Shown in pieces: positions 1-58,676 of a stretch of 64,000 nucleotides of DNA (the stretch's first letter is position 1; every line of letters begins with the position of its first letter). This DNA is from Escherichia phage vB_EcoM_3HA11. The stretch lies in the sequence record MN342150; one strand, written 5' to 3'. Position numbers and translations under genes: made by a program. The notes under the pieces are model-generated. The model made no database searches. It was not told where the DNA came from and worked only from the letters and a program-made list of their open reading frames with translations.

Positions 1-615
1 GGATATGAACACTTAATGGTGTTTATTGCGATTCAGGGGGCAAAAGAAGGCATCATCAGTTCTGAATATTCTGGAACGATGCGCCTGGCTGATTATGTTG
101 CTCCCGAAGCGTTTATCAAGAAATGTATCGACGCATGGTGCCTTTATGCTATCGGCACGTATCCTACTCCTCCGGCAGGTGAGATACTGTTTACCGTTCC
201 GACCCCAGCCGCTGGCGACACAGACGCGATCTTTGCTGATATGTTGGCCAAAGGTTATCTGGCATATGATAGTGCTCACAATGTCTATGACTTCTCGGCG
301 TTGAATCGTATCTTCGGATACACCATAACATCCGAAGCCAATATTCCCGACTATGGAATTCTGGCATGGGGTATTGACGGTCTCGGCGCAACATATGCGT
401 CTTCTGATGTTGGTCCTGTATTGATTGACACAGGTGTGACAATGGAGCAATACATGTCACAATTCCCTCAGCATAATGTTACCGGAAGCGACATCATTAT
501 TGTCTATCCTGGTTCTAATGCGTTGTCCCGCCTGGTGGACGGCTGGAAGCCTCAGCTGAAGGACATCGTTGCTGGAATCAGATTTCACATCCCTGTCGTC
601 AATCCCACACCTTAA
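1..615 (+). CDS. hypothetical protein, 3' part of a gene that probably begins upstream of the window
   Basis: Frame is open from base 1 (no in-frame stop before the ATG at 16); ends at 615 followed by a hairpin terminator. Confidence 0.4.
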   Translation, partial: GYEHLMVFIAIQGAKEGIISSEYSGTMRLADYVAPEAFIKKCIDAWCLYAIGTYPTPPAGEILFTVPTPAAGDTDAIFADMLAKGYLAYDSAHNVYDFSALNRIFGYTITSEANIPDYGILAWGIDGLGATYASSDVGPVLIDTGVTMEQYMSQFPQHNVTGSDIIIVYPGSNALSRLVDGWKPQLKDIVAGIRFHIPVVNPTP

Positions 616-671: not shown

Positions 672-719
672 TCTAAACATAAGCAGTACGACACCAACTT
701 GAAAAGCAGGAACTACATT

Positions 720-995
720 ATGAAAATCATCCTCGACGCATATATCCGTTACGGCAGCAAATGTCTCATGGCCAAGGTTTATAACGGCGAAGAATTAGTA
801 CACGCTCAAACTGCTCCTTCTGAACAATTACGTGAAATTATGGCACGTGATTTCCCTGGCGTTGAAATTGTTGAACCCGCCAACCAAGCCGAAGTTGACA
901 AAGAATGGGAACGCGAATGGAGTCCAGCGGCGCTTACCCAGGCTGAAAAGAATTGGTCTAACCGCGAAAACGCCAACCGTCCTTTCCGTCGTTAA
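720..995 (+). CDS. hypothetical small acidic protein
   Basis: ORF track 699..995 begins at TTG; ATG at 720 is preceded by AGGAA at optimal spacing (AGGAACTACATTATG). Confidence 0.5.
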   Translation: MKIILDAYIRYGSKCLMAKVYNGEELVHAQTAPSEQLREIMARDFPGVEIVEPANQAEVDKEWEREWSPAALTQAEKNWSNRENANRPFRR

Positions 996-1073
996 GACCC
1001 TGGGGCATATAACGCCCCTTTCTTTTCGCTAATTAAGGGAAACCGCACCGATTTTATAATCAGGAGAATTACA

Positions 1074-3461
1074 ATGGCCATCCCATCTTTCTTGAACTTT
1101 CTTGAAGAGTCTAAACAATTAGACGAAGCGTTTAACTCATCCCCGTATGAATTGACTTTCGGCAAGAAGAACGCTGGCGACATTTTCTTCACATTTGTTG
1201 ATGAAGACGAAAAAGAATTCCGTATTCAATTCTATACCCCACAAGGTCTAGGCAAGAATGTTCGCCAAGTCTTTATCGGTCAGAAGCGTGGTTCAACCTA
1301 TCCAGACGCAATCGGTCGTTTCAAAAACCCAATGCGTGTCATCGCATCCATGATCGAAGCGACTAAACAATTCATGGCGACACCGCTGGGTAAAACCATT
1401 GATGGGTTTGCGATTAACTTCTCCAAGAAAGCTCTAGAACGCGGAACGACGTTACTCCCAAAAATTATTCGTCAATCTGGTCTGAAGCAGAAACTCAACG
1501 TCATGGATCTGACTTATACCCCAATCCCTGACCGCGCCTTCGTATGGGTTGTGCGTAAAGGCAAGGATCCTGCTCAGGTATTTGATGGTCCGAAAATGAA
1601 AGGTGTCACATGGGATGATCCGGACAAAGTCGGTGACGTTCCTGACCAGGCTGCTCGTGACGCCGCACTACAAGGTGACATGGATGATTTGAGCCAAGCC
1701 GTAAATGCCGATTCTCGCTGGATTCTGACCAAAGCTGATCATACTCAGCCTATGCTTGTCTGGTCTGGTAAAGAACGTGGGCGGACTATTACCGCCAATA
1801 TCGCACCTCACGCGAATGAACCTGGTGTGTATGCTGGTAGTATCATGAACGAGAAACGGATCCGCGCTCAATCCCCAGACGCTATTGTACGCCAACTGGG
1901 ATTACCGCAGATCCCTCTGAATATTCTGAATGATTTCACCAAGCAGTCGTCCATCTTCTGGAAAGAGATGACGGGGGATTCTGGAAAAATAGACATGCAG
2001 ACTCTTCCAAAAACCGGTTCTATGGATGATCTGCGCAACCAGGGTTATATCGCCCGCATCTTGGGCATCGTTGATACATATGCTCCTCAGCAAGTCGGCA
2101 TGTATGCTGGTGAAAAATTGGCTCGGGTTGGTGCTGGCAAATATCGAACTTCTGGCGGGTTGGATATTCAAGTCTATTTTTGGGGGATTGTCAACAGCAA
2201 ACTCTCTGTAGAAGTGGTTTCTGATTTATCTGGCAATGAACAGCTGATGCTGGAAGGCGACGTGAAAAACGCGGCTTTTGAAATCGTCAGTGCGATATCC
2301 CGTGCTGCTGATTCTCAGTTCAACGGTGAAGTGGAATGTCGTGTTGTTCCGATCAACGGTGCCCCATACCCGATTCAAAAGATTTCCCGTTCCCAGGGTT
2401 ATTCTTATGTCGATTGTATTTCGTTTACTTTGAAGATCGCCGATGCATTGTTAAATCGATTTACTCTGGGTAAGGCAGTCAAACTCGATCTGATAAAAGA
2501 GTTCCCTCGAACGACGTTTATTGTTCGTTATGACTGGCGCGGCAAAGATACTCTGATGGTCCAGTCTTCTGATGGGAAGACTATCTTCGGCGAAATCAAC
2601 ACAAATTCCAGTGATAACGCTGTCATCACTGCGAACCTGAAAGCCCCAAGCAATGCGAAGATATTTGGTGAAACCGTTCATGGGTTCTCTGTGGCTTGGG
2701 ACTTCCAGTTCCCTGCGGGTAGCCAGCTGCAAGCCGCACGGTTCGTTACGAACGTGACTTACGACTTCGATCGTAATAAGGCCAACATCACGACCATGCT
2801 GACAGAAAATGGCCGAAATGTAGTCAATAGCCGCGGATATGACATTCAGTTATCTGTCAAGTCTGTGCAAGATGCTTTGAATGAGACTTCACAACGCCTG
2901 AAAGACGCTGCGGCTCAATTGAGCCATCTCAGTTCATCAAACTATAACCCGAACAATCTGTTCCTGAATGATATCACCGTCAGTAAGTTTGGTGCAATTA
3001 TGTTCCAAGACAAAGATCTGGCACAGTCCAGAAACCGCACGGTAGTCATTGATGCTTTGGCTCGGGCGAAAGATCAGGTCGCTGGTGGTAAGAATGCAGG
3101 TGACCTGGCCACCTATGCCGGATCCATTCGTGACAGCGCTCCTAATGGACGAGATCTGGATTGGCAGGTATACACAGCCAGTAATGGTACAGTTCTGAAT
3201 GTTGCTTGGGATATCACTTTCCGTCGCAACACAACCGAAGGCGCATATCGTGAATTCAAAGATCAGATCAACCGTGCCAACCAATACCTGCAAACGGTAT
3301 ACAACGACGCGAAATCTAAAGGCTATAATCCCACCGAGCCAAATCTCATGACTATTGAACGCGCTCGTCAATCCGACGAATGGGCTATGAGTAATGGTGA
3401 TAGTGCATACAGTGAATATGAACAATCGCTGGGTGGTAATCTCCAGATCCGTCTGAAATAA
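1074..3461 (+). CDS. large hypothetical protein (795 aa) with capsid-targeting-sequence-like N-terminus; candidate packaged/injected protein
   Basis: Long ORF with SD AGGAG; N-terminus SFLNFLEES resembles the F-x-x-F-L-x-E pattern of T4 internal-protein targeting peptides. Confidence 0.55.
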   Translation: MAIPSFLNFLEESKQLDEAFNSSPYELTFGKKNAGDIFFTFVDEDEKEFRIQFYTPQGLGKNVRQVFIGQKRGSTYPDAIGRFKNPMRVIASMIEATKQFMATPLGKTIDGFAINFSKKALERGTTLLPKIIRQSGLKQKLNVMDLTYTPIPDRAFVWVVRKGKDPAQVFDGPKMKGVTWDDPDKVGDVPDQAARDAALQGDMDDLSQAVNADSRWILTKADHTQPMLVWSGKERGRTITANIAPHANEPGVYAGSIMNEKRIRAQSPDAIVRQLGLPQIPLNILNDFTKQSSIFWKEMTGDSGKIDMQTLPKTGSMDDLRNQGYIARILGIVDTYAPQQVGMYAGEKLARVGAGKYRTSGGLDIQVYFWGIVNSKLSVEVVSDLSGNEQLMLEGDVKNAAFEIVSAISRAADSQFNGEVECRVVPINGAPYPIQKISRSQGYSYVDCISFTLKIADALLNRFTLGKAVKLDLIKEFPRTTFIVRYDWRGKDTLMVQSSDGKTIFGEINTNSSDNAVITANLKAPSNAKIFGETVHGFSVAWDFQFPAGSQLQAARFVTNVTYDFDRNKANITTMLTENGRNVVNSRGYDIQLSVKSVQDALNETSQRLKDAAAQLSHLSSSNYNPNNLFLNDITVSKFGAIMFQDKDLAQSRNRTVVIDALARAKDQVAGGKNAGDLATYAGSIRDSAPNGRDLDWQVYTASNGTVLNVAWDITFRRNTTEGAYREFKDQINRANQYLQTVYNDAKSKGYNPTEPNLMTIERARQSDEWAMSNGDSAYSEYEQSLGGNLQIRLK

Positions 3462-3508
3462 ACCATAGCCCCTTCGGGGGCTAAATACATCAAAATCCTT
3501 AGGAGATC

Positions 3509-4081
3509 ATGATGAAACCGTTTATCGAATATTTTAAAGAACAAGCCCAGCAGCCGCAAACTCATGGCGGTATACAAGGCAAAAGTGTAACCATCACTAA
3601 ACAAGCCGATGGAACACAATGGTGCTCCGGCGCTACCGTGACCCAGATCACTCCTGACAATCAGGCCGATGTCTATAACCTGGAATTGACTAATGGCAAC
3701 ACCACTAAAGTGAAACTGACGCCGGACCAGGTTCATGCGGTTTCTGTGGGCAAAGATGTTGTTGCCGTTCATGACGGATACGAATTCTTCTTTGGTAAAG
3801 ACGCCAGCAAAGGTCAGGTCACAGAATCCTATGCTCAAGAACTAGCGAATATGGATAAGATGATCGGTAAAGCGCTGGGCGTTGGCAAATCTCGTAAAAG
3901 CGGTCGTACAGAGTTTGAATATTCCGGTATTCCTGGTATTGGAAAACCTGTCGCAATCGACTTCGGCGGCGAAGACGATCCGTATGTGATCGTCACAGTC
4001 GCTGGTAAACAGCATGACATCAGTAAGGGAAAAACCCTAGCTGTGGACATTGCCAAATATATCGGCGTGAAACCTGTCTAA
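3509..4081 (+). CDS. hypothetical protein, weak capsid-targeting-like N-terminus (KPFIEYFKEQA)
   Basis: ORF with SD AGGAG 6 nt upstream; follows a hairpin. Confidence 0.5.
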   Translation: MMKPFIEYFKEQAQQPQTHGGIQGKSVTITKQADGTQWCSGATVTQITPDNQADVYNLELTNGNTTKVKLTPDQVHAVSVGKDVVAVHDGYEFFFGKDASKGQVTESYAQELANMDKMIGKALGVGKSRKSGRTEFEYSGIPGIGKPVAIDFGGEDDPYVIVTVAGKQHDISKGKTLAVDIAKYIGVKPV

Positions 4082-4090
4082 GGAGGTTGT

Positions 4091-4330
4091 ATGAAAGGGT
4101 TCCCGGATTTCCTGAAAGAGGCGAAGGTTGACCATCGCCGCCTTGGACAACAAGGTATGTACGACATCACTGATGTTGGCCGCCCCGAAAAAGGCGAACT
4201 GATCGACTACTATGATCGTAACGGGGACAAACATCAGGGGAAAGTGAAGTCTGTGAACGCACAGAATATCATGACTCTGACAAACACCAGCACTGGTGAA
4301 ACAGTCAAACTGACTCTGATTAAGCCATAA
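4091..4330 (+). CDS. internal head protein-like small protein (N-terminus MKGFPDFLKEAK)
   Basis: SD AAGGAGG; N-terminal 11 residues match the T4 IP capsid-targeting pattern MKTYQEFIAEA. Confidence 0.55.
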   Translation: MKGFPDFLKEAKVDHRRLGQQGMYDITDVGRPEKGELIDYYDRNGDKHQGKVKSVNAQNIMTLTNTSTGETVKLTLIKP

Positions 4331-4360
4331 AAGAAACCCCGCTTCGGCGGGGTTTTTGTT
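4331..4360. terminator. bidirectional rho-independent terminator (ACCCCGC-TTCG-GCGGGGT flanked by A/T runs)
   Basis: Perfect GC stem with UUCG-type loop between convergent genes 4091..4330 (+) and 4359..4964 (-). Confidence 0.6.
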
Positions 4361-4964
4361 ACTTCACGTACATACAGACCTGGACCTTCTTGCCTTTGTC
4401 GTTCTTGACTTCTACTAATTTAGAAGCGCCATTCAGCTTGACGACAGTCCCCTTTTCCTTCCCACCACTTGGCAATTCATATTCAATCTCTTCACCAGGA
4501 GAAGGCATGCCAGCGCTTGGCCCCATAACAGCAGAGATCTTGTAACGTGCCATACCAGGGCGACCACCTTTGAAGGCATACCAGCCACCTTCTTGCATGT
4601 CTTTCCACTGTTTGTTACCGTCAACAACAATGGATGGATTACCGAAACCGGCCTTGATACCCAGCAAGTCAATTGTCTTTCCCGACTTGTTGTATTTTAC
4701 GGCAGTGTCACCATCAAACTTGTCCAGCATCTGAGTACTGGCGAACTGCCCGTCTTTGATACCAGAAGCAGCGATAACGTCCTTGGCGTTTGTCAGGACA
4801 ATCTTGCGCCCGTCTGGGGTTTCGAAAGTCACCTTATCACCAGAAACATCGGCGTGGAGGAACGTACCCGCAACGTCTTCTGTTGATTTACCGATCTTGT
4901 CAGACTTGATATGTGCAGACATCGGCGGCGCGGCTTCGGTCAAAAAGTCTTGAAAAGTTTTCAT
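4359..4964 (-). CDS. internal head protein-like protein (N-terminus MKTFQDFLTEAA)
   Basis: N-terminus nearly identical in pattern to T4 IPI/IPII/IPIII targeting peptide, with an L-x-E site as cleaved by prohead protease. Confidence 0.6.
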   Translation of the reverse strand: MKTFQDFLTEAAPPMSAHIKSDKIGKSTEDVAGTFLHADVSGDKVTFETPDGRKIVLTNAKDVIAASGIKDGQFASTQMLDKFDGDTAVKYNKSGKTIDLLGIKAGFGNPSIVVDGNKQWKDMQEGGWYAFKGGRPGMARYKISAVMGPSAGMPSPGEEIEYELPSGGKEKGTVVKLNGASKLVEVKNDKGKKVQVCMYVK

Positions 4965-5051
4965 TTCGTTCTCCAGTTATATTATTCTATATAGTACCTC
5001 ATAGACCCCATTAACACTAAATACTAGACAGTTCAACAATAGGAAACAATC

Positions 5052-5405
5052 ATGGTAAGCGCGAGTATATTCATCAACCGTGGACTGCTTGCTATAGCCC
5101 ACTCTCATGCCCTCCACTTCGTTACAACTTCCTATGCCAAGCACAAGGCACTCGGGGAGTTCTACGGGGAACTGGAGGACTTGCTGGATACCTTTACAGA
5201 GGCATATATCGGCGCGGGTGGTGTATATGTCCCAGGGTTTGAGAATATTAAACTGTACAACCCAGATCCTATATCGTATGTCAACAGCGTTGTTATCGAC
5301 GTAAACGGAATTTATGGTCAATGTGACAGCCATCTTCAAAATACGCTCGATGAAATCAAAACTTTGTGCTATCAGACCATCTACAAACTGAAGCAATTGT
5401 CTTAA
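5052..5405 (+). CDS. hypothetical protein
   Basis: ORF with SD AGGAAA upstream. Confidence 0.45.
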   Translation: MVSASIFINRGLLAIAHSHALHFVTTSYAKHKALGEFYGELEDLLDTFTEAYIGAGGVYVPGFENIKLYNPDPISYVNSVVIDVNGIYGQCDSHLQNTLDEIKTLCYQTIYKLKQLS

Positions 5406-5467
5406 CTCAATAGAACATCCTTCAGGTTATAATTTGCCCATTCGTCATCAATAGGATACAGATAACA

Positions 5468-6085
5468 ATGGGCAAAATCTTTATACCTTCTCATTCGGAA
5501 GGTTGTCAAATCGCTGCAAAATTTCTACACAAACAAATGAATTGTGGTGCTGTGTTCGTAGAACCAAATTCATTCGATAATCGTGAATCCCCTGACGCCA
5601 TCGGGTTCAGACCTGGGGGTTGTTCTATATTAATGGAAGTGAAAGTTTCTCGTTCTGATTTCCTAACCGATAAAAAGAAACCACACAGAATGGATCCTTC
5701 AACAGGAATGGGGGCATACCGATTTTATGTTTGTCCTGCTGATGTGATCAAAGTTGAAGATCTCCCACCAAAGTGGGGATTATTATATTTCACTCCTCGG
5801 AAATCATTGAAGCCCGTTCACGTTCCGAATATGCAATATTCTTCGTTATCTTCTCCGGAACATTATGCAAAATATTTGTCCACAGCATTAGGCAAAAAGC
5901 GGTCGACAGATATTCCTCCTTACCTGTTAGGATATAAGCAGATGTTGGAAGAATTCGCCCACTTTGAACGAAATCAAGTCGCAGAGCAGAATATTCTATA
6001 TGGTGCATGGAGACAGCTTTGCATAGCTCAAAGTCGCGGTGTAAATTATAATGTGACAGAAGTATTCCAAAGGCCAAATATCTGA
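5468..6085 (+). CDS. PD-(D/E)xK nuclease-fold protein (putative)
   Basis: Motif ESPDAIGF...ILMEVKVSRSDF fits the D...E-x-K catalytic core; stop overlaps start of primase. Confidence 0.45.
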   Translation: MGKIFIPSHSEGCQIAAKFLHKQMNCGAVFVEPNSFDNRESPDAIGFRPGGCSILMEVKVSRSDFLTDKKKPHRMDPSTGMGAYRFYVCPADVIKVEDLPPKWGLLYFTPRKSLKPVHVPNMQYSSLSSPEHYAKYLSTALGKKRSTDIPPYLLGYKQMLEEFAHFERNQVAEQNILYGAWRQLCIAQSRGVNYNVTEVFQRPNI

Positions 6086-7149
6086 TGAAATTCTTAGACG
6101 AACAATACATCAATTTCCTCGCCCCTCGGCTTGACAAGTTCAGCTGGGAACGCGTAGGCGCTGTCGCCAAGTTCCGTTGCCCTCTATGCGGGGACTCTAA
6201 GAAGAGTGCCAACAAACGTCGTGGTCACTTCTTTTATGATCGCGATGAAGATGTGTTTCGTTTTAAGTGTCACAACTGCAACGAGATGAGTGGTTGGTCG
6301 TTTGAGTTTTGGTTGAAGAAGTTTGATGAAAGATTGTACAACGAATATAATCTTGAAAAATTCAGAATCATGGGGGACACCAATTCACGCCCCCTACAAA
6401 AACTCAAGCCATTACAGCGCCTCACCCAAACAGCGCGTATCGGCTCCCAAGTTGCCAAAAGAGATGAAGAGCATCTCGGCAACATGATACGATTAGATTT
6501 ACTTGATCGTGACCATATTGCTCGTCGTTACGTGGAAGGCAGGGGAATGCCGGAGAGCGCGTTATCTCTTTTGTATTACAGCAAGAACTTCCGCAAGGAT
6601 CTTTTGAATTTTGAAACAGACGTTGAAAAACAGAAGAAGATCCCTGAAGATGAACGGTTGGTTATCCCATTCTGGACTCAAGACGGTCGCATGAAGATCG
6701 TTCAGGGGCGCGCATTCGGTGATAACCTTCCTGATAATGTGTTGCGGTACGCCACTGTCAAGCCCAAAAACGAGGATACTAAAATCTATGGGGAAGAGCG
6801 CATCATATGGAATAAGACCAAATTGGTCGTTGAAGGTCCAATTGATAGCCTGTTCCTCCCGAATTGTTTAGCAACTGCGGATGCTGACCTTCTGAGCGCC
6901 AAGGGGGATATCTATATCCCTGACAACCAATATCGAAACAAACAAGTTTGTGATGGTATACAGAAAATGATAGACAGCGGAGTCAAAGTCGTTCTGTTCC
7001 CGCCAGAAATTCCATGGAAGGATATCAACGATATGGTTCGCCCCGACAAGGGAAATATCCCGATACGTGATCTGCTTCAGATCATAGCCAAGAACGTATA
7101 TCAGGGGATGTCGGCGTCCTTACGATTTTCTGACTTGAGGAAGATATGA
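6085..7149 (+). CDS. 61: DNA primase (T4 gp61-like)
   Basis: Zinc-ribbon FRCPLCGDSK plus KIYGEERI, LVVEGPIDSLF and KDINDMVRP blocks matching T4 gp61; 354 aa. Confidence 0.85.
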   Translation: MKFLDEQYINFLAPRLDKFSWERVGAVAKFRCPLCGDSKKSANKRRGHFFYDRDEDVFRFKCHNCNEMSGWSFEFWLKKFDERLYNEYNLEKFRIMGDTNSRPLQKLKPLQRLTQTARIGSQVAKRDEEHLGNMIRLDLLDRDHIARRYVEGRGMPESALSLLYYSKNFRKDLLNFETDVEKQKKIPEDERLVIPFWTQDGRMKIVQGRAFGDNLPDNVLRYATVKPKNEDTKIYGEERIIWNKTKLVVEGPIDSLFLPNCLATADADLLSAKGDIYIPDNQYRNKQVCDGIQKMIDSGVKVVLFPPEIPWKDINDMVRPDKGNIPIRDLLQIIAKNVYQGMSASLRFSDLRKI

Positions 7150-7355
7150 TGGATTTGAAAGAACTGAATAGTATGGACGATGAAGAGATTCTTCGTGGGT
7201 ATATGCAAGCCCGTGAAGGATATGTCCTATCTGGCTTAGAATCTAAGAGTTTCATCCATGGTTGGAGGAACGGAATGGTGGACTTCGGTGGTTGTCCTAT
7301 CACTGAAGAACAAATGAATTTGGCTCGCCAGTATTTGAAAAAGAAGCCGACCTAA
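7146..7355 (+). CDS. hypothetical small protein
   Basis: ATGA-overlapped with primase stop (translational coupling). Confidence 0.45.
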   Translation: MMDLKELNSMDDEEILRGYMQAREGYVLSGLESKSFIHGWRNGMVDFGGCPITEEQMNLARQYLKKKPT

Positions 7356-7367
7356 AACTTTTTAACT

Positions 7368-7398
7368 CAAAAACCTTCTCTCTAGGCCTCATTCTACG
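7368..7398 (+). terminator. rho-independent terminator (AGGCCTC...GAGGCCT plus TTTT)
   Basis: Inverted repeat with T run after the 7146..7355 gene. Confidence 0.5.
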
Positions 7399-7447
7399 AG
7401 GCCTTTTAAAATACTTCAAAAATAATTTAAAAATTTATTGAAAAAGA

Positions 7448-7476
7448 CTTTACTCTTCAATAATCATGCACTATTA
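7448..7476 (+). promoter_or_regulatory. T4-early-like promoter (-35 TTTACT, 17 nt spacer, -10 TATTAT)
   Basis: Same arrangement as the promoter at 644. Confidence 0.35.
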
Positions 7477-7554
7477 TAGTTCACATAGGGCGGTACACAA
7501 CACCCCGCCGAATGAAAAGTGAAACGACCCAACTACATTATGAGGAATTACATC

Positions 7555-8043
7555 ATGGCTACTACCAAAACTCTGATCACCAACGGCACCATCTCTTTTG
7601 AACTGAACACCGAAGTTGCAAAAGTTGAAATGTTCCGCATCGCGCAGGCAGCTGGCTTCACTGGTGGCAAAACTTCCTTCATGAATCTGCTGAACGGCAA
7701 AGTGAAAGCAACCAACGGTTTCACCCTGGTAGAGCAGGTTGTCGTAGACAAAGCCGTGGTTGCCAAGACTGCTGACAAGGTTGGCATGCTGAAAGGCCTG
7801 GGTCATGATATCCACGTCGTTGAAGCCAACACAGAGACCTACGGCACAATCGTAACAGAAAAAGGCCGTGTGCAACTGAACCCTCTTAACAACGGCACCT
7901 TCTCGGTAATGGTCTTCCCTAAAAAGGGCTATGCCAACGACGACATCGTCAAGGCGGCGGGCGGCGAAGCGAAGTCCCAGTATGTCAAGATGGGCAAGCT
8001 GAGCGCCGACGCAGTAGAAACTCTGGTGAACAAACTGGCTTAA
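7555..8043 (+). CDS. hypothetical protein, probably abundant (strong promoter, optimal RBS, strong terminator)
   Basis: ATG at 7555 preceded by GAGGAATTACATC (same initiation cassette as genes at 720 and 13979). Confidence 0.5.
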   Translation: MATTKTLITNGTISFELNTEVAKVEMFRIAQAAGFTGGKTSFMNLLNGKVKATNGFTLVEQVVVDKAVVAKTADKVGMLKGLGHDIHVVEANTETYGTIVTEKGRVQLNPLNNGTFSVMVFPKKGYANDDIVKAAGGEAKSQYVKMGKLSADAVETLVNKLA

Positions 8044-8075
8044 TTGAAAGGGGGAGGTTTCTCCCCTCTTTTTCA
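8044..8075 (+). terminator. rho-independent terminator (GGGGGAGG-TTTC-TCCCCTC plus TTTTT)
   Basis: Strong GC hairpin with T run. Confidence 0.6.
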
Positions 8076-8098
8076 AAGTTTTGGTGGGAGAATGATAC

Positions 8099-8287
8099 AT
8101 GAGTAGAGCAATTATCCAAGCCTCTCCTGGCGCTCTATGGGTTGCCGACCGAATTCCCAACGCGCACTTTCCTCAGTTCCAGGAGGAACTGGAACAAGCA
8201 ATGTTGAAAATATTTGAAAAATATGGGTATGATTCCGAAGTTAGGATTTCCTTCAAAGAAATCATGCCTGTCGTCGTAGTCAGATAA
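8099..8287 (+). CDS. hypothetical small protein
   Basis: ORF only. Confidence 0.35.
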   Translation: MSRAIIQASPGALWVADRIPNAHFPQFQEELEQAMLKIFEKYGYDSEVRISFKEIMPVVVVR

Positions 8288-8356
8288 TCGACACTAAATC
8301 CTCAAGTTCGACTTTCACTTTAAATACCTTCGCATACATTGCGGAGGTATTTTCTT

Positions 8357-9151
8357 ATGGCCATTCTAAAACTTGGCAACCGAGGTTCTGAAGTCAAAGC
8401 GCTTCAACAAAGCCTCAACAAAATCGGTTTCTCCCTTACAGCCGATGGCATATTTGGTAAAGCAACAGAGAATGCTGTCAAATCCGTTCAGGCAGGTGCT
8501 GGATTGGTTATTGATGGTATTGCTGGGCCAAAGACCTTCTATGCTATCCGCAACTCTGGAGACGCTCATCAGGAACATCTGACCGAAGCGGACTTGGTTG
8601 ACGCAGCACGTGAACTTGGTGTTGAGCTGGCCAGTATGAAAGCTGTGAATCAGGTAGAATCCCGTGGCACGGGTTTTACCAAAACCGGCAAGATCAAAAC
8701 TCTGTTTGAGCGCCACATCATGTACAAAAAGGTGACGGCCAAATTCGGACAAGCAAGAGCCAATGCTCTGTACCAACTCTACCCAACATTGGTTAACCCC
8801 AATTCTGGCGGGTATATCGGCGGAGACGCGGAGTTGGAACGCCTTCAGGGTGCAATCGCCCTTGACGAGGACTGCGCTTACGAGAGTGCTTCCTACGGCC
8901 TATTCCAGATCATGGGGTTCAACTGCCAAATCTGTGGATATCCAAATGCCAAAGAGATGTTCACTGATTTCCTGACTGGTGAACGCGCTCATCTTCTGGC
9001 ATTTGTCAAGTTCATCAAGGCTGATGCCAATATGTGGAAAGCCCTGAAGAACAAGAATTGGGCCGAGTTTGCTCGTCGGTACAATGGTCCGGCATATGCG
9101 AAAAACCAGTATGATACTAAACTGGCGGCAGCATACAAGAGTTTCTGTTAA
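8357..9151 (+). CDS. endolysin: peptidoglycan-binding domain plus N-acetylmuramidase-like catalytic domain
   Basis: N-terminal repeat LQQSLNKIGF...DGIFGKATENAV / DGIAGPKTFYAI typical of PG-binding domains; C-terminal ASYGLFQIMGFN muramidase-type block; SD GGAGG before the ATG at 8357. Confidence 0.75.
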   Translation: MAILKLGNRGSEVKALQQSLNKIGFSLTADGIFGKATENAVKSVQAGAGLVIDGIAGPKTFYAIRNSGDAHQEHLTEADLVDAARELGVELASMKAVNQVESRGTGFTKTGKIKTLFERHIMYKKVTAKFGQARANALYQLYPTLVNPNSGGYIGGDAELERLQGAIALDEDCAYESASYGLFQIMGFNCQICGYPNAKEMFTDFLTGERAHLLAFVKFIKADANMWKALKNKNWAEFARRYNGPAYAKNQYDTKLAAAYKSFC

Positions 9152-9180
9152 CAAAAGGCCGGAAACGGCCTTTTTCTTTA
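9152..9180 (+). terminator. rho-independent terminator (GGCCGGAAACGGCC plus TTTTT)
   Basis: Hairpin and T run after endolysin. Confidence 0.6.
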
Positions 9181-9256
9181 TCTAACATACAGGTATGCTG
9201 GGCACGTCGCTTAATTAAAGGTGTCGACAACCCCTGTAGATATAGGAAGGTTCAAC

Positions 9257-10096
9257 ATGCAATCTGCGTCTAAAGTTGTATCCATGAAGCCAGCGAAGAC
9301 AAAATCTGCTCGTAAGAAAGACACCATCCAGAAGGAAGAAGACTGGATGAAGTTTTCCAAAGGCGATTTCAAAATTGCTCCGTTCAATGGCCTCTCAGAA
9401 AATCAGAACCTCGCATATCAATCCGCATTAAACGAACACCTCACTATCGCTATCGGTCCGGCAGGTACAGGCAAATCCTATTGTGGTGCGTCCGCTGCTG
9501 CCAAGCATCTGATTGACAAAACCATCAACAAGATTATCATCACGCGTTCTCCTTTACCGACCGGAACCACAGCGGGGTTCCGGCCTGGTGACACATATGA
9601 AAAGCTGATGCCTTATTTGATGCCGCTCATACAGACATTCAAAAAGGTTCTCAAAACAGATACGGGTTCCGACGGTTTCTTCAACTATCTGTGGGAGAAA
9701 CGGATCATAGAAATTCAAGACCTTGAAACTGTAAAGGGAATGACCTTCGATGATTGTTTTCTGATTATCGAAGAGGCGCAGGAATGCGATATGGAGCAGC
9801 TGAAGAACTTACTGACCCGTGCTTCAGATTCTTCGTACATCTTCGTGAATGGAGATATCAAACAGTCTAACAAGCGACTGCGTGATAGTGCGTTACAGAC
9901 GTATGTGGATTCCTTTAAAGACTTCAACAACAAGCTGGAAACATATTCCTTGCAAATTGACGGTGTAGAAATCGGAGATGAATATCCAGAGTGGGTTCAA
10001 CCATTCAGCATCATCGAATTCGATAAGTCTGATCGTAATGGACGCGGTAACTTCACCCGCCTGATGTTAGAAATTAACGACCTGTACAACATTTAA
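9257..10096 (+). CDS. phoH: PhoH-like ATPase
   Basis: Walker A GPAGTGKS and overall PhoH-family layout; SD GGAAGG before the ATG at 9257. Confidence 0.75.
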   Translation: MQSASKVVSMKPAKTKSARKKDTIQKEEDWMKFSKGDFKIAPFNGLSENQNLAYQSALNEHLTIAIGPAGTGKSYCGASAAAKHLIDKTINKIIITRSPLPTGTTAGFRPGDTYEKLMPYLMPLIQTFKKVLKTDTGSDGFFNYLWEKRIIEIQDLETVKGMTFDDCFLIIEEAQECDMEQLKNLLTRASDSSYIFVNGDIKQSNKRLRDSALQTYVDSFKDFNNKLETYSLQIDGVEIGDEYPEWVQPFSIIEFDKSDRNGRGNFTRLMLEINDLYNI

Positions 10097-42486: not shown

Positions 42487-43040
42487 TTGGTCAGCTCCTG
42501 TTCCAGCTGATTAACAAAGGAAGAAACATAATCTGGATCGAGCACTTGGATGTTACGTTTGGCTTCGTTTTTGTTTATTGCATCATCGTGATATGTAATG
42601 CCAGTCAGCCCGTAATTCGCGATGATTGTCGCGTCGTCCATAGCGCCAAGGCCATATGCCAAACGGATAGCGCGGGGATCTGTTTCATTCCCAAATTCGT
42701 CAACGTAGTATTTTACGTCCCACATCCCATCGAGTCCATAACGAGCAGTTAGCTCTTCAATGATTCTGCGTTCTGGTTTTGGCCAGTCTTCTGTGATATC
42801 CATGATACCATTGATAAGACATGGTATCCAGAACAACTCGAAGGAACCATAGACCCGTTCCGCAAAAGACCTTGGGGTTTCCCCATCAAAAACAGTATAA
42901 GGCAGGAGAAGCCCTTCTATGTCCCGAATTTTCTTAACAACCATAACCCGTCGTGTCAAGTTTTGCAACAGGACTTGGTCATTTTCTTTGACACCAATTA
43001 GTTGATGCCATACGAGTGGAAATTTCTCAAAATATTTCAT
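42483..43040 (-). CDS. baseplate-associated protein (putative)
   Basis: 185 aa, coupled within the hub operon. Confidence 0.4.
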   Translation of the reverse strand: MKYFEKFPLVWHQLIGVKENDQVLLQNLTRRVMVVKKIRDIEGLLLPYTVFDGETPRSFAERVYGSFELFWIPCLINGIMDITEDWPKPERRIIEELTARYGLDGMWDVKYYVDEFGNETDPRAIRLAYGLGAMDDATIIANYGLTGITYHDDAINKNEAKRNIQVLDPDYVSSFVNQLEQELTK

Positions 43041-43052
43041 GGCATCTTCCCC

Positions 43053-44021
43053 TTAGAAGCTGTCGCCTTCGGTATCAAAGCGGCCTTTGTGCAACGGTTC
43101 CAGTTCGATAAATGTCATATCAATCTGGGTTGACACGATGCTGTCATCTTTGTGGACAGCATATGAAGAATCCGGCGTCTCGTTGACAAACATGTTTGAC
43201 AAAACACAAGTCGATATCCGATGCAACCATTTGTTGCGTTCCCCCTGCACCATGAACGTGATGTCAAATGTGGAAGGGTGTAGATAGAATGCACTGGAAT
43301 TCTTGTTGTATTTGTATTCGGGGTACATATGCATCTTGAACAGACGAATGATTTCCCTCACCATTTTCGCCTCTTTTTGCGATCTTGGAGTGAATTTGAA
43401 TGTGAACGGGATTTCTCGGTTGCGCACCCCTTGGAAAATCATTTCCACATACGGGTTGGTCATCGTACCTGTAAACAATTCTAATGTATCATGAGCATTA
43501 ATTGTCGGCAAGAAAGGAATTGCTTCCGAAGCAGATTGGATGGCCTTTGTCGCCGCAAATCTCCCCATTTCTTTCCCAACATTCAAAGCATCCCCAAGTT
43601 TGAATTGACTCATATCTTGGGCGGCGCGTGATAAGAATTGGGCACCCATACCTGCTAATCCCAACTCGGAGCCGTTCCAGCCAACGCCATAGTTGGTTGT
43701 AATGGATTCGGGCATACACAACACGATTGATTCGTTAGAGCGGACGTGACGCGCCCAAGCATATTTGCTAATAGAACCCGATTTAGAACCATAAACCACA
43801 GGAGTCTTACCCAATGGATTTTGTATCGGATTTTCGACGGTTTGGGTTGTGGTGTCCCCATATGAAGAACCGGATATTCGGTTGATGTTGAATAGAACAT
43901 AATGGCCGAGGGTTTTACCCCCTGTTATGTCTAATGGATAGACCAATTGCTTCTGAGACTTGGCCAAGCCTTTTGTGTTCAGAACTTTGATCTTATCGAT
44001 GGTCGACTTGAAATTCGCCAT
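43053..44021 (-). CDS. baseplate/tail-tube junction protein (gp48/gp54-like, putative)
   Basis: 322 aa, first gene of the hub operon. Confidence 0.45.
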   Translation of the reverse strand: MANFKSTIDKIKVLNTKGLAKSQKQLVYPLDITGGKTLGHYVLFNINRISGSSYGDTTTQTVENPIQNPLGKTPVVYGSKSGSISKYAWARHVRSNESIVLCMPESITTNYGVGWNGSELGLAGMGAQFLSRAAQDMSQFKLGDALNVGKEMGRFAATKAIQSASEAIPFLPTINAHDTLELFTGTMTNPYVEMIFQGVRNREIPFTFKFTPRSQKEAKMVREIIRLFKMHMYPEYKYNKNSSAFYLHPSTFDITFMVQGERNKWLHRISTCVLSNMFVNETPDSSYAVHKDDSIVSTQIDMTFIELEPLHKGRFDTEGDSF

Positions 44022-47470: not shown

Positions 47471-47793
47471 TCTAAAATTGGTACGTTCACAAACCCTTTG
47501 TGCCAGCGGTGTGGGTTGTGGCCTCTGTTATGATCTAGTAAGCACGTATCGGGAGGAACACTGAAGTGAATGCCTTCGATGTCATAATAATTCCCATCAA
47601 TCAGGGTGTATACATGACCTTCAATCTGGCTATAATGGATCTCTGCTTGGGGATACACATGCTTCAGAACCAGAGCAACCTGATAGCACTTTCCGTTCTT
47701 CCCGATATACTCGACATCGACCTGTTGTGGGAACACGTCTTTGATAAGATTTATCAATCTCGTGATATCATTTACAACAACCGAACGTTTCAT
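47452..47793 (-). CDS. hypothetical protein
   Basis: ORF. Confidence 0.4.
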
Positions 47794-57270: not shown

Positions 57271-57492
57271 TTAATCGTCATATTTGCCTGTCCTGAAATT
57301 CCATTTCCTGGCCTTGGATAGGTCAAGATCTTTGAATATATTACCGAAGATCTTTTTAAACCCTGACTCTTCTTCAAGATCTTTCGGTCTCTTGACAGGT
57401 TCTTGAACCATACCGCCTTCGGGTTTCCCCACATCAGCGGTAGTGGTGGCCGGAGCAGAAGAGTCTTCGAGGTAATCCTGGAAGCTCTTCAT
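57271..57492 (-). CDS. small internal-protein-like protein (N-terminus MKSFQDYLEDS)
   Basis: Capsid-targeting-like N-terminus; directly downstream of the Hoc-like gene. Confidence 0.5.
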   Translation of the reverse strand: MKSFQDYLEDSSAPATTTADVGKPEGGMVQEPVKRPKDLEEESGFKKIFGNIFKDLDLSKARKWNFRTGKYDD

Positions 57493-57495
57493 AAA

Positions 57496-58305
57496 TTACA
57501 CCACAGCCAGTTCACAACGGGCGGAAGTTACAGAATGGCCGTCCGCGTCTTCTACAACACACCAGTACTCACCCTCAGAAGCAGCGGTGACAGCGTGGTT
57601 GACCAGAGACGCAGTCGCTGCTGTTGGGTTAACACCAGCATCAATCACCACACCTTCGCCGCCAGGGGTGTCAGAGTAATACCACACATAAGAGTACGGC
57701 GCGGTGCCGCCAGCAGCAACGATAGTGAATGTCGCATCAGCGCCGTCGGCCACGTCCTGAGAAGCAGCCAGATCGGTTGTCAACGACAACAGTCCTGCGA
57801 TGGTAATGACGGTAGAATCGGTGTGATTTCCTTCTACAGTAACACCATAAACTGTAACAGAACCAGACTGAAGCAGTTTGAATTTACCACCGCCGATATG
57901 GATCGCCTTCGCCAGGTCGCCAGAATACCAGTTCACTCCTTGATATGTTGCGTTCACAGGAGCAACAGTGGCCAGCAATTCAACGATTTGGCCTATTTCC
58001 CCGCTGGCAGTAGCCGGAGTAATGGTCAGACCCGTGGTCAGAACAGCAGTCGGATCATGGATTTCATAAGAAACCTGGAAACCTACTGGCTTGGTCGGAT
58101 CAACTTTGGTGACACCGTCCGCTTGCAGATTGCTTTTGGTCAGCAATGCATCAAGACCTTTACATTCGGTCAGGATCTCATCAGGATCTTGATTTAGGCT
58201 GGTTTTTTGCCAACCCTTTGCAACACCCGTCACGACATGATTGCGTTCGGTTTCCGGTTTGTTGCGGACAACTTCCGGCGCGACTAATACTGTGATTGTT
58301 GGCAT
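57496..58305 (-). CDS. Ig-like domain capsid decoration protein (Hoc-like)
   Basis: Ala/Thr/Val/Gly-rich beta repeats with C-terminal I-set-like signature GEYWCVVEDADGHSVTSARCELAV; ATG at 58305 with SD GGAGGA. Confidence 0.5.
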   Translation of the reverse strand: MPTITVLVAPEVVRNKPETERNHVVTGVAKGWQKTSLNQDPDEILTECKGLDALLTKSNLQADGVTKVDPTKPVGFQVSYEIHDPTAVLTTGLTITPATASGEIGQIVELLATVAPVNATYQGVNWYSGDLAKAIHIGGGKFKLLQSGSVTVYGVTVEGNHTDSTVITIAGLLSLTTDLAASQDVADGADATFTIVAAGGTAPYSYVWYYSDTPGGEGVVIDAGVNPTAATASLVNHAVTAASEGEYWCVVEDADGHSVTSARCELAVV

Positions 58306-58676
58306 GGTTTCCTCCACTCATCCAAATCGTTGTTCAGAGCCATCATCAGCTCGTTATCTGGTTCGTATGAACCGGAACATAAATCATCTCTCCAAACTCC
58401 TAACGTCAACAGTGCTGCCTTTAGACGAGGATGTTGGTTCTTATCCGTTTTCAACACCAGCATTCGACACACAGCTTCAGTTTCGAAAGTATTGAAAAGA
58501 ATAATCAATTGATTGATAAGCACACGAGGACTTTTCCCTGGCACAAATCTCTTCAATGATTGATTAATTAGCGAAATTCGCTGAATGTCTACCATCAAAT
58601 CATCCCGTGAGACACCAGCAGTGATATAGTGTCTCAGGGCATATTCCATCAAATTGCTTTCGTCAACGATAGCCAT
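58284..58676 (-). CDS. hypothetical protein
   Basis: ORF. Confidence 0.4.
   Translation of the reverse strand: MAIVDESNLMEYALRHYITAGVSRDDLMVDIQRISLINQSLKRFVPGKSPRVLINQLIILFNTFETEAVCRMLVLKTDKNQHPRLKAALLTLGVWRDDLCSGSYEPDNELMMALNNDLDEWRKPCQQSQY

Follow-up and report, generated by a model that had tools for sequence, protein, structure and literature searches.

Bacteriophage T4 packages Alt, an RNA polymerase ADP-ribosyltransferase (ART), in its head and injects it, and its internal proteins (IPs) IPII and IPIII both start with the peptide MKTYQEFIAEA. The first ten residues of IPIII are enough for incorporation into the head, and mutagenesis of this capsid-targeting sequence (CTS) in T4 has assigned residues 4 and 7 to targeting and residues 8 and 10 to processing, Asp at position 10 blocking processing while targeting is kept (review of L. 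W. Black's work, PMC9026906). The IP genes of T4-like phages have been described likewise as a plastic locus with a constant tag and changing cargo (PMC9026906). Here we analysed 64,000 nucleotides of Escherichia phage vB_EcoM_3HA11 (MN342150), referred to below as the window, in which five genes begin with variants of the T4 tag. The largest of them, encoding a protein of 795 amino acids (aa), also has an N-terminal domain that sequence profiles relate to that of Alt.

An initial annotation of this DNA had singled out the five genes, four of them adjacent, and had proposed that their products are packaged, cleaved after L-x-E by the prohead protease and injected, probably as anti-defence or host-takeover effectors. 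All five open reading frames (ORFs) were confirmed at the coordinates and with the N-termini that it gave, and the fifth, for which the strand had been omitted, is on the minus strand. The tag-bearing genes are as follows, an arrow marking the predicted cleavage point.

1074..3461, plus strand: 795-aa protein, with a leader containing the CTS-like motif SFLNFLEE, an Alt-type N-domain and a variable C-terminal body
1074..1127, plus strand: predicted propeptide of the 795-aa protein, MAIPSFLNFLEESKQLDE, with cleavage predicted after E18 and possibly also after E12
3509..4081, plus strand: 190-aa protein (189 aa if the start is 3512), N-terminus MKPFIEYFKE↓Q, predicted mature form 19 kDa
4091..4330, plus strand: 79-aa protein, N-terminus MKGFPDFLKE↓A, predicted mature form 7.7 kDa, isoelectric point (pI) 9.1
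4359..4964, minus strand: 201-aa accessory protein, N-terminus MKTFQDFLTE↓A, predicted mature form 20.3 kDa, pI 9.1
57271..57492, minus strand: 73-aa acidic, probably disordered protein, N-terminus MKSFQDYLED

The window is part of the genome of a ViI-like myovirus of the genus Kuttervirus, family Ackermannviridae. Its first 8 kb are 97.8% identical to phage SJ2, with 270 related records overall, and the segment with the 201-aa gene has a 97% match to phage S117. Genes for DNA metabolism and the baseplate are found in the window, and the head-morphogenesis module, which lies outside it, was read from the close relative Sajous1 (MW021757).

Compared with the T4 IPs, this locus has the same kind of small, mostly basic mature proteins (about 8 and 20 kDa), protease, scaffold and capsid proteins of the same families, and, for the 795-, 190- and 79-aa proteins, orthologues present in virions; the locus of the 190-, 79- and 201-aa genes is variable, as the T4 IP genes are. 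It differs in that the mature parts have no sequence similarity to the T4 proteins, and in belonging to Ackermannviridae, with an isometric head and another DNA modification. The logic of a module plus an effector is also that of MuF-fused and 'polyvalent' proteins, where a conserved head-incorporation module is joined to exchangeable effectors, ART and others, that are co-delivered with the DNA (PMC5512222, PMC9503650); here, in a T4-type head, the module would instead be the Alt N-domain, with targeting to the scaffold core and release by the protease. The ejection proteins of the giant phages phiKZ and SPN3US, which have a gp21-like protease, likewise lose N-terminal propeptides after a Glu-containing motif, but those propeptides are long and have no IP-type decapeptide, and the inner-body architecture and the protein families are different.

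A T4-type tag at the N-terminus of five proteins

The likely proteome of the window (20,274 residues) contains five instances of the core pattern [FY].[DE][FY][LIF].[ED], four of them at residue 4-5 of a protein. We then took every ATG, GTG or TTG of either strand that is followed by 25 aa or more and searched for the strict pattern ^M(M)K.[FY].[DE][FY][LIFM].[ED]; only the 190-, 79-, 201- and 73-aa genes were returned, and a looser N-terminal pattern additionally recovered the 795-aa gene. A scan of Sajous1 (about 150 kb, all frames, any Met) found only the orthologues gp82, gp214, gp215 and gp216, together with three irrelevant matches. The tag is real and goes well beyond chance.

Three of the proteins are in exact register with the T4 tag: the 201-aa protein (MKTFQDFLTEA), whose N-terminus is the nearest match to the T4 sequence, the 79-aa protein (MKGFPDFLKEA) and, from its second Met, the 190-aa protein (MKPFIEYFKEQ). 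The pattern common with T4 is an aromatic residue at positions 4 and 7, an aliphatic one at 8 and Glu at 10; the differences are Phe for Tyr at 4, one family with Phe at 8 and one with Asp or Ser at 10. The targeting determinants F4 and F/Y7 are present in the 201-, 79-, 190- (from Met2) and 73-aa proteins and are kept in all examined orthologues. At positions 8-10 the 201- and 79-aa proteins have L-x-E-A, the 190-aa protein F-x-E-Q and the 73-aa protein, with the tag MKSFQDYLEDS and hence Asp at position 10, L-E-D/S. The 190-aa orthologues start with MKTFLEFFTEQ in Klebsiella phage T765 and MKPFIQYFNEQ in Dickeya, and those of the 73-aa protein with MKGFQDFLED (LIMEstone1 ORF007) and MKTFKDFLES (Serratia 2050H1). 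The tag of the 795-aa protein is offset by +2 relative to T4 (..SFLNFLEE), its equivalents of positions 4 and 7 being the invariant F6 and F9, and it offers L-E-E12 and L-D-E18 as L-x-E sites.

Seven members of the 201-aa family, with identities as low as 60%, were aligned: M1, K2, F4, L8, E10 and A11 never change, position 7 takes F or Y, there is free variation at positions 3, 5 and 9, and the tag is followed by a linker containing indels. Klebsiella, Dickeya, Serratia and Agtrevirus phages showed this conservation pattern in their orthologues of the remaining genes. Synonymous codons at the conserved residues differ between the genes, and therefore the constraint acts on the peptide and not on the DNA. 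A nucleotide-level motif behind the shared start, such as a translational operator or a recombination site, was rejected on the same ground.

The tag is found on mutually unrelated bodies, among them the 73-aa protein and an unannotated 59-aa ORF of Klebsiella phage T765 (ON399185, 7348-7527, plus strand), which has a GTG start and the N-terminus MKTFQDFLKES. This ORF occupies the slot of the 79-aa gene, and its body is unrelated to the 79-aa protein. The proposal of a T4-type tag in the initial annotation is thus borne out at the positions defined in T4; the 795-aa protein, which had been called a weaker case, is yet the one whose N-domain is related to Alt, as described below.

The N-domain of the 795-aa protein and T4 Alt

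The 795-aa protein is laid out as a leader, an Alt-type N-domain (aa ~14-180) and a C-terminal body (aa ~215-795). Among relatives, the first ~190 residues are almost invariant and the remainder is mosaic, with coverage of 37-100% and lengths of 531-983 aa. An exhaustive phmmer search with residues 1-200 gave 92 clusters at 50% identity, comprising proteins of 279-1681 aa, where a word-indexed search had given only five matches. The domain is always at the extreme N-terminus, which reads as a short leader followed by [L/I]-x-E-[A/S]-F-[N/D]-S-x-P-Y.

Profile-profile comparison (hhalign) of 91 N-domains against eight T4-like Alt N-domains gave a probability of 95-96% and E values of 1e-9 to 2e-8 over 162-182 collinear columns, aligning family columns 12-178 with Alt residues 2-182; reversed, column-shuffled and unrelated controls stayed at or below 1.1%. 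Comparisons to T4 Alt with less information were weak: BLASTP gave E 0.58, hhalign against the single Alt sequence P ~0.01, a hidden Markov model (HMM) of six sequences no score for Alt, and one of 91 sequences a marginal 9.7 bits, so that the homology became clear only once the eight-sequence Alt profile was used. Independently of the profiles, a Foldseek search of BFVD with an AlphaFold2 (AF2) model gave matches to Alt proteins and, from Agrobacterium phage Atu_ph07, to a zeta-toxin protein. Judged by the profiles, homology to the N-terminal domain of T4 Alt extends over the first ~180 residues of the 795-aa protein.

The alignment also places LDE18↓AFNS of the 795-aa protein opposite the T4 Alt site MELITE6↓LFDED, from which six residues are removed (GenBank X15811). 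F6 and F9 are invariant and E12 is nearly invariant in 30 homologues of the 795-aa protein. The two proteins have in common a homologous N-terminal domain of ~170 residues and a short leader ending in [L/I]-x-E directly before it; both are large (795 versus 682 aa) and abundant in virions, and the gene of the Aeromonas phage phiA8-29 relative is near the DNA ligase gene, as alt is in T4 (gene 30 neighbourhood). They differ in the leader, which has 18 residues and carries an IP-type CTS-like motif in the 795-aa protein versus 6 residues in Alt, in the C-terminal part, which is mosaic even between close relatives of the window, and in the ART domain, which the 795-aa protein does not have.

Of 36 N-domain proteins scanned in a second batch, six contained PF03496, the ART domain of T4 Alt, and these were mostly the remotest members; one member of the family has an anthrax-lethal-factor-like domain. 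For the 795-aa protein there was no match in Pfam and no ART-like match in the PDB by Foldseek. Its sequence found nothing in the PDB, and Foldseek with its model against the PDB found none below 1e-3, only weak GNAT-like and PUR-repeat-like fragments. The C-terminal 580 residues are modelled at 70-90 in the predicted local distance difference test (pLDDT) and match no known family or solved structure. Since PF03496 is not present, the 795-aa protein is an Alt-N-domain protein with non-ART cargo rather than an orthologue of Alt. As a member of the Alt N-domain family, it would combine a conserved head-packaging module with an exchangeable C-terminal cargo.

Some further genes with this domain were noted. 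In Vibrio phage K469 (OZ195916, 4140-10468) there are tandem Alt-N-domain genes of 837 and 749 aa (the annotation of the first probably includes 30 codons too many), followed by a gene for a 206-aa protein starting with MASFKLIFEA, which has its first five residues in common with the 749-aa protein (MASFKQLVES). In phiA8-29 (4868-9334) the Alt-N-domain gene is one small ORF downstream of the DNA ligase gene, and its true start is probably 21 codons downstream of the annotated one (internal MGRSFKALLES). In T4 itself, a 112-aa ORF, probably cd.1, has a 29-residue stretch, TGAVFIDKKNRFKDGQNIISSVIKSITK, that matches the Alt-N family HMM at E 0.001-0.004 in a database of 199 sequences; this may be chance or a fragment of the domain.

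The small tagged proteins

The genes of the 190- and 73-aa proteins belong to the core that the family conserves, the 73-aa gene being kept in 279 records. The 79-aa gene is absent in Vi01, and the 201-aa gene, found in only 14 of ~270 Ackermannviridae records, is absent in Guerrero and Sajous1. The body of the 79-aa protein is, in its structural model, a small Tudor/SH3-like barrel, and the AF2 model of the 201-aa protein has pLDDT 87 with a flexible N-terminal peptide. Weak paralogy extends beyond the tag among the 190-, 79- and 201-aa proteins, which are small, mostly basic and built on a Tudor/SH3-like barrel, and which we regard as a loose family of paralogues. Pfam and PHROGs gave no informative family for any of the five tagged proteins, and the fold searches gave no enzymatic fold for any body. 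No match related to anti-restriction or defence was obtained in these general family and fold scans, in which no direct comparison was made with T4 IPI, the model of anti-restriction proteins that inhibit type IV GmrSD. A homologue of the 190-aa protein in SKML-39 (6056-6976) was observed to be 306 aa long, with an extra Lys/Ala-rich C-terminal extension of 117 residues.

The 73-aa protein has an L-E-E site at residues 39-41, and its gene is directly downstream of a gene for a Hoc-like protein with Ig domains, with a gap of 3 bases. With Asp at position 10 and conservation throughout the relatives, it is a better candidate for a core component that is uncleaved or differently cleaved than for an effector. 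The Hoc-like gene (57496-58317, minus strand) encodes a 273-aa protein with Ig-like domains (Ig_3 and Big_2); it corresponds to the Hoc-like decoration protein ORF006 of LIMEstone1, and in Sajous1 it is gp83, named 'putative tail fiber protein', with 43 spectra.

Virion proteomics and head machinery in relatives

Mass spectrometry of CsCl-purified Sajous1 virions gave 196 spectra for gp214, which is among the five best-represented virion proteins, 32 for gp215 and 20 for gp216 (PMC10892097). By size and synteny these are the orthologues of the 795-, 189- and 79-aa proteins. In LIMEstone1 the 189-aa ORF080 and the split homologue of the 795-aa protein, ORF081 and ORF082, are confirmed structural proteins (PMC3296691). 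The Vi01 annotation names 094c and 093c, the orthologues of the 795- and 190-aa proteins, 'phage associated protein'. The orthologues of the 73-aa protein, Sajous1 gp82 and LIMEstone1 ORF007, were undetected in both virion proteomes, and the Hoc-like protein encoded just upstream was detected. For the packaging proposed in the initial annotation, the abundance of the 795-, 190- and 79-aa orthologues in purified virions is a supporting result.

Two neighbours without a CTS-like N-terminus, a Dps-like DUF5856 protein and a DUF7270 protein, are yet virion proteins in relatives: Sajous1 gp217, the Dps-like orthologue, had 10 spectra (PMC10892097), ORF078 of LIMEstone1 and Vi01_092c, also Dps-like, were found in virions, and for DUF7270 LIMEstone1 ORF085 is 'confirmed structural' and Vi01 096c is 'phage associated protein'.

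The head module of Sajous1 includes a Peptidase_S77 protein of the T4 gp21 family (gp155, E 1e-27), a T4_CASP (gp22) scaffold (gp156, E 9e-45) and a Gp23 capsid protein (gp157, E 2e-122), in which the Pfam match begins at residue 62. The propeptide of gp157 ends with NLGE51↓S, and the scaffold starts with MKPELQNLFE↓G, both of which are L-x-E sites. A small core protein, gp154 (MEITDIATFADFLAS), has F-A-D-F-L near its N-terminus.

Weighing the explanations

Taken together, these observations make it probable that the five proteins are internal head proteins which are targeted to the prohead core and released inside the head by the S77 protease. Several points weigh against this. The 190-aa family has Phe, not Leu or Ile, at position 8, and the 73-aa protein, undetected in two proteomes, has no Glu at position 10. 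The N-terminal cleavage of the tagged proteins is something that we infer. Mass spectrometry of virions cannot separate the head interior from the head surface or the tail, and if the 196 spectra mean that the 795-aa protein is very abundant, an internal protein of 87 kDa needs much of the head volume. Confidence in the AF2 model is low for the Alt-like N-domain (pLDDT 35-64), and the genes of the protease, scaffold and capsid protein, not being part of the window, are those of a relative with ~97% identity. Finally, the untagged DUF7270 and Dps-like virion proteins demonstrate that membership of the cluster alone does not amount to CTS-dependent packaging.

The same targeting and cleavage would also serve proteins that are head-internal but structural, acting as scaffold-core accessories, DNA counter-ions or factors of head size and stability. 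T4 IPIII mutants have slower head assembly and polyheads (PMC9026906), the 190- and 73-aa genes are conserved family-wide, the predicted mature 79-, 201- and 795-aa forms are mildly basic, the true prohead core protein gp154 has a motif similar to the tag (F-x-D-F-L), and no body has an enzymatic fold, all of which fits such a role. However, dispensable, patchy genes such as the 201- and 79-aa genes and a mosaic C-terminus such as that of the 795-aa protein are typical of conflict genes and not of structural ones, and relatives with the Alt N-domain carry toxin-type cargo (ART, an anthrax-lethal-factor-like domain, zeta toxin). We regard a structural role as unlikely for the five proteins, although the conserved 190- and 73-aa proteins may serve assembly instead. 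Resemblance of the N-termini as a mere remnant of paralogue ancestry, or by chance to T4, without a targeting role, could draw on the weak paralogy of the 190-, 79- and 201-aa proteins past the tag. This is very improbable given that the tag is much better conserved than the bodies, only at the positions with a function in T4 and with turnover of synonymous codons, that it heads unrelated bodies (the 73-aa protein, the T765 ORF, the 795-aa leader), and that no start codon of the window yields a further match.

For Sajous1 gp214-217, a tail-associated 'ferrojan horse' operon for entry by iron piracy has been proposed from Phyre2 matches of low confidence. Ferritin (96.7) and BiMOP (63) were the only Phyre2 matches of its authors above 60% confidence (PMC10892097), the Dps/ferritin-like fold of the 117-aa neighbour is backed by Pfam and PHROG, and gp214-217 are all in CsCl-purified virions. 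On the other hand, the Sajous1 authors saw no dependence on TonB or FeoB (PMC10892097), and searches of Pfam, PHROG, the PDB and Foldseek related the 795-aa protein to no family of tail proteins; its N-domain is homologous, by profile, to that of Alt, which is head-internal. The call of the 79-aa protein as a 'helicase' had 27% confidence, against a predicted Tudor/SH3-like barrel, and the shared N-terminal tag is left unexplained. The tail reading is not supported by our results and we give it hardly any weight.

If the proteins are core-targeted IPs, the following sequence of events would apply. Late in infection the tagged proteins would be made alongside the head genes, as the promoter-like motifs described below and the adjacency to the Hoc-like gene suggest. 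By analogy with T4 IPIII, the N-terminal decapeptide would bind the gp22-type scaffolding core, with the aromatic residues at 4 and 7 as targeting determinants, and the protein would be built into the prohead. The gp21-type serine protease would then cut after the Glu of L/F-x-E at position 10, and the 795-aa protein would be cut after E18, at the site aligned with that of Alt. Mature proteins of 7.7, 19, 20 and 87 kDa would thus be freed inside the head, with the predicted neo-N-terminal peptides AKVDHR... for the 79-aa protein, AAPPMSAHIK for the 201-aa protein, QAQQPQTHGGIQGK for the 190-aa protein and AFNSAPYELTFGK or SKQLDEAFNSAPYELTFGK for the 795-aa protein; the unprocessed counterparts would be AIPSFLNFLEESK, GFPDFLK and PFIEYFK. 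Retention in the virion is what published mass spectrometry found for the 795-, 190- and 79-aa orthologues, and exit with the DNA at infection is probable. Binding to the scaffold, the head-interior location, ejection and the role in the host are steps that we infer. An effector or anti-restriction role is plausible for the 201- and 79-aa genes, with their patchy distribution, and for the 795-aa protein in its mosaic C-terminal part, and the connection to a modified genome made in the initial annotation would follow from analogy with T4 IPI only.

Promoter-like elements and neighbouring genes

The other features of the locus are listed here.

1029..1036, plus strand: CTAATTAA, variant late-promoter-like element upstream of the 795-aa gene, directly after a terminator hairpin (1002-1027)
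3481..3488, plus strand: CTAAATAC, late-promoter-like -10 element upstream of the 190-aa gene
4330..4357: bidirectional terminator, a GC-rich hairpin between A-runs and T-runs, separating the convergent 79-aa and 201-aa genes (read from the sequence)
16..615, plus strand: context, DUF7270 protein with its start outside the window (Pfam E 2e-115)
5052..5405, plus strand: context, 117-aa Dps/ferritin-like protein, DUF5856 (Pfam and PHROG matches)

Elements of the CTAAATAC and CTAATTAA type also precede the scaffold, portal and gp153 genes of Sajous1, the portal gene having CTAATTAC at the equivalent relative position. In LIMEstone1, TAAATA elements upstream of ORF078 and ORF080 are annotated as putative late promoters. 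For the T4 late promoter, TATAAATA, the window has 2 matches versus 1.9 expected, which is no enrichment. It seems that this family uses CTAAATA-like elements in place of the T4 late promoter.

Upstream of the Dps-like gene a hairpin, CCCCCTAAATACAGGGGG, with a late-promoter-like TAAATA in its loop was observed in Sajous1 (47600-47647), LIMEstone1 (6515-6535) and T765 (~7530-7560). It is absent in the window, where the 201-aa gene is inserted and CTAAATAC stands at 5017 without the stem. The slot upstream of the 795-aa gene (699-995, plus strand) is variable: it holds a 91/98-aa gene in the window and Vi01, an unrelated 129-aa gene in Sajous1 and Guerrero, and 111- and 75-aa genes in phiD3, none of which carries the tag. 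The Sajous1 gene at 42532-43149, gp211 'RegB' (31 virion spectra), whose position on the genome map is just upstream of the window start, has a signal-peptide-like start, MTMTTLKAMALSVTFTIASGSVHAS, which is unexpected in an RNA endonuclease and in a virion protein alike; the phiD3 gene model of 'RegB' has 129 aa and does not include it.

Significance for ViI-like phages

ViI-like phages (Kuttervirus, Taipeivirus, Limestonevirus) are widely used in biocontrol and therapy, and more than half of their genes have no assigned function. The presence of the 795-, 190- and 79-aa orthologues in virions was already known from Sajous1, Vi01 and LIMEstone1. What is new is the profile-based homology of the 795-aa N-domain to T4 Alt, and with it a family of Alt-N cargo proteins. 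We found no paper linking capsid-targeting sequences or internal proteins to Ackermannviridae or Vi01, and in the literature on packaged effectors we found no equivalent role of the Alt N-domain described.

As a wider proposal, which we put forward only tentatively, the Alt N-domain may be a portable module of T4-type capsids for loading into the head and injection, comparable to MuF. It would be present in at least 92 clusters, with ART, zeta-toxin, lethal-factor-like and many unknown folds as cargo, and in Ackermannviridae it would be combined with an IP-type decapeptide. It and the small CTS proteins would then constitute a hypervariable injected arsenal for counter-defence, and the 11-residue tag might be usable for engineered cargo in therapeutic Kuttervirus phages.

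For the family, these results allow the published virion proteomics to be re-read, replacing the 'tail completion protein' and 'ferrojan horse operon' readings, and give a shortlist of candidate first-strike proteins that would enter the cell ahead of any phage gene expression. The patchy 201-aa gene and the mosaic C-terminus of the 795-aa protein become candidate determinants of host range or anti-defence, and the tag could load foreign proteins into ViI-like phages, as has been done with T4. The N-terminal domain of Alt would be a separable packaging module common to many proteins with differing cargo, which would extend the concept of polymorphic packaged effectors to T4-type heads.

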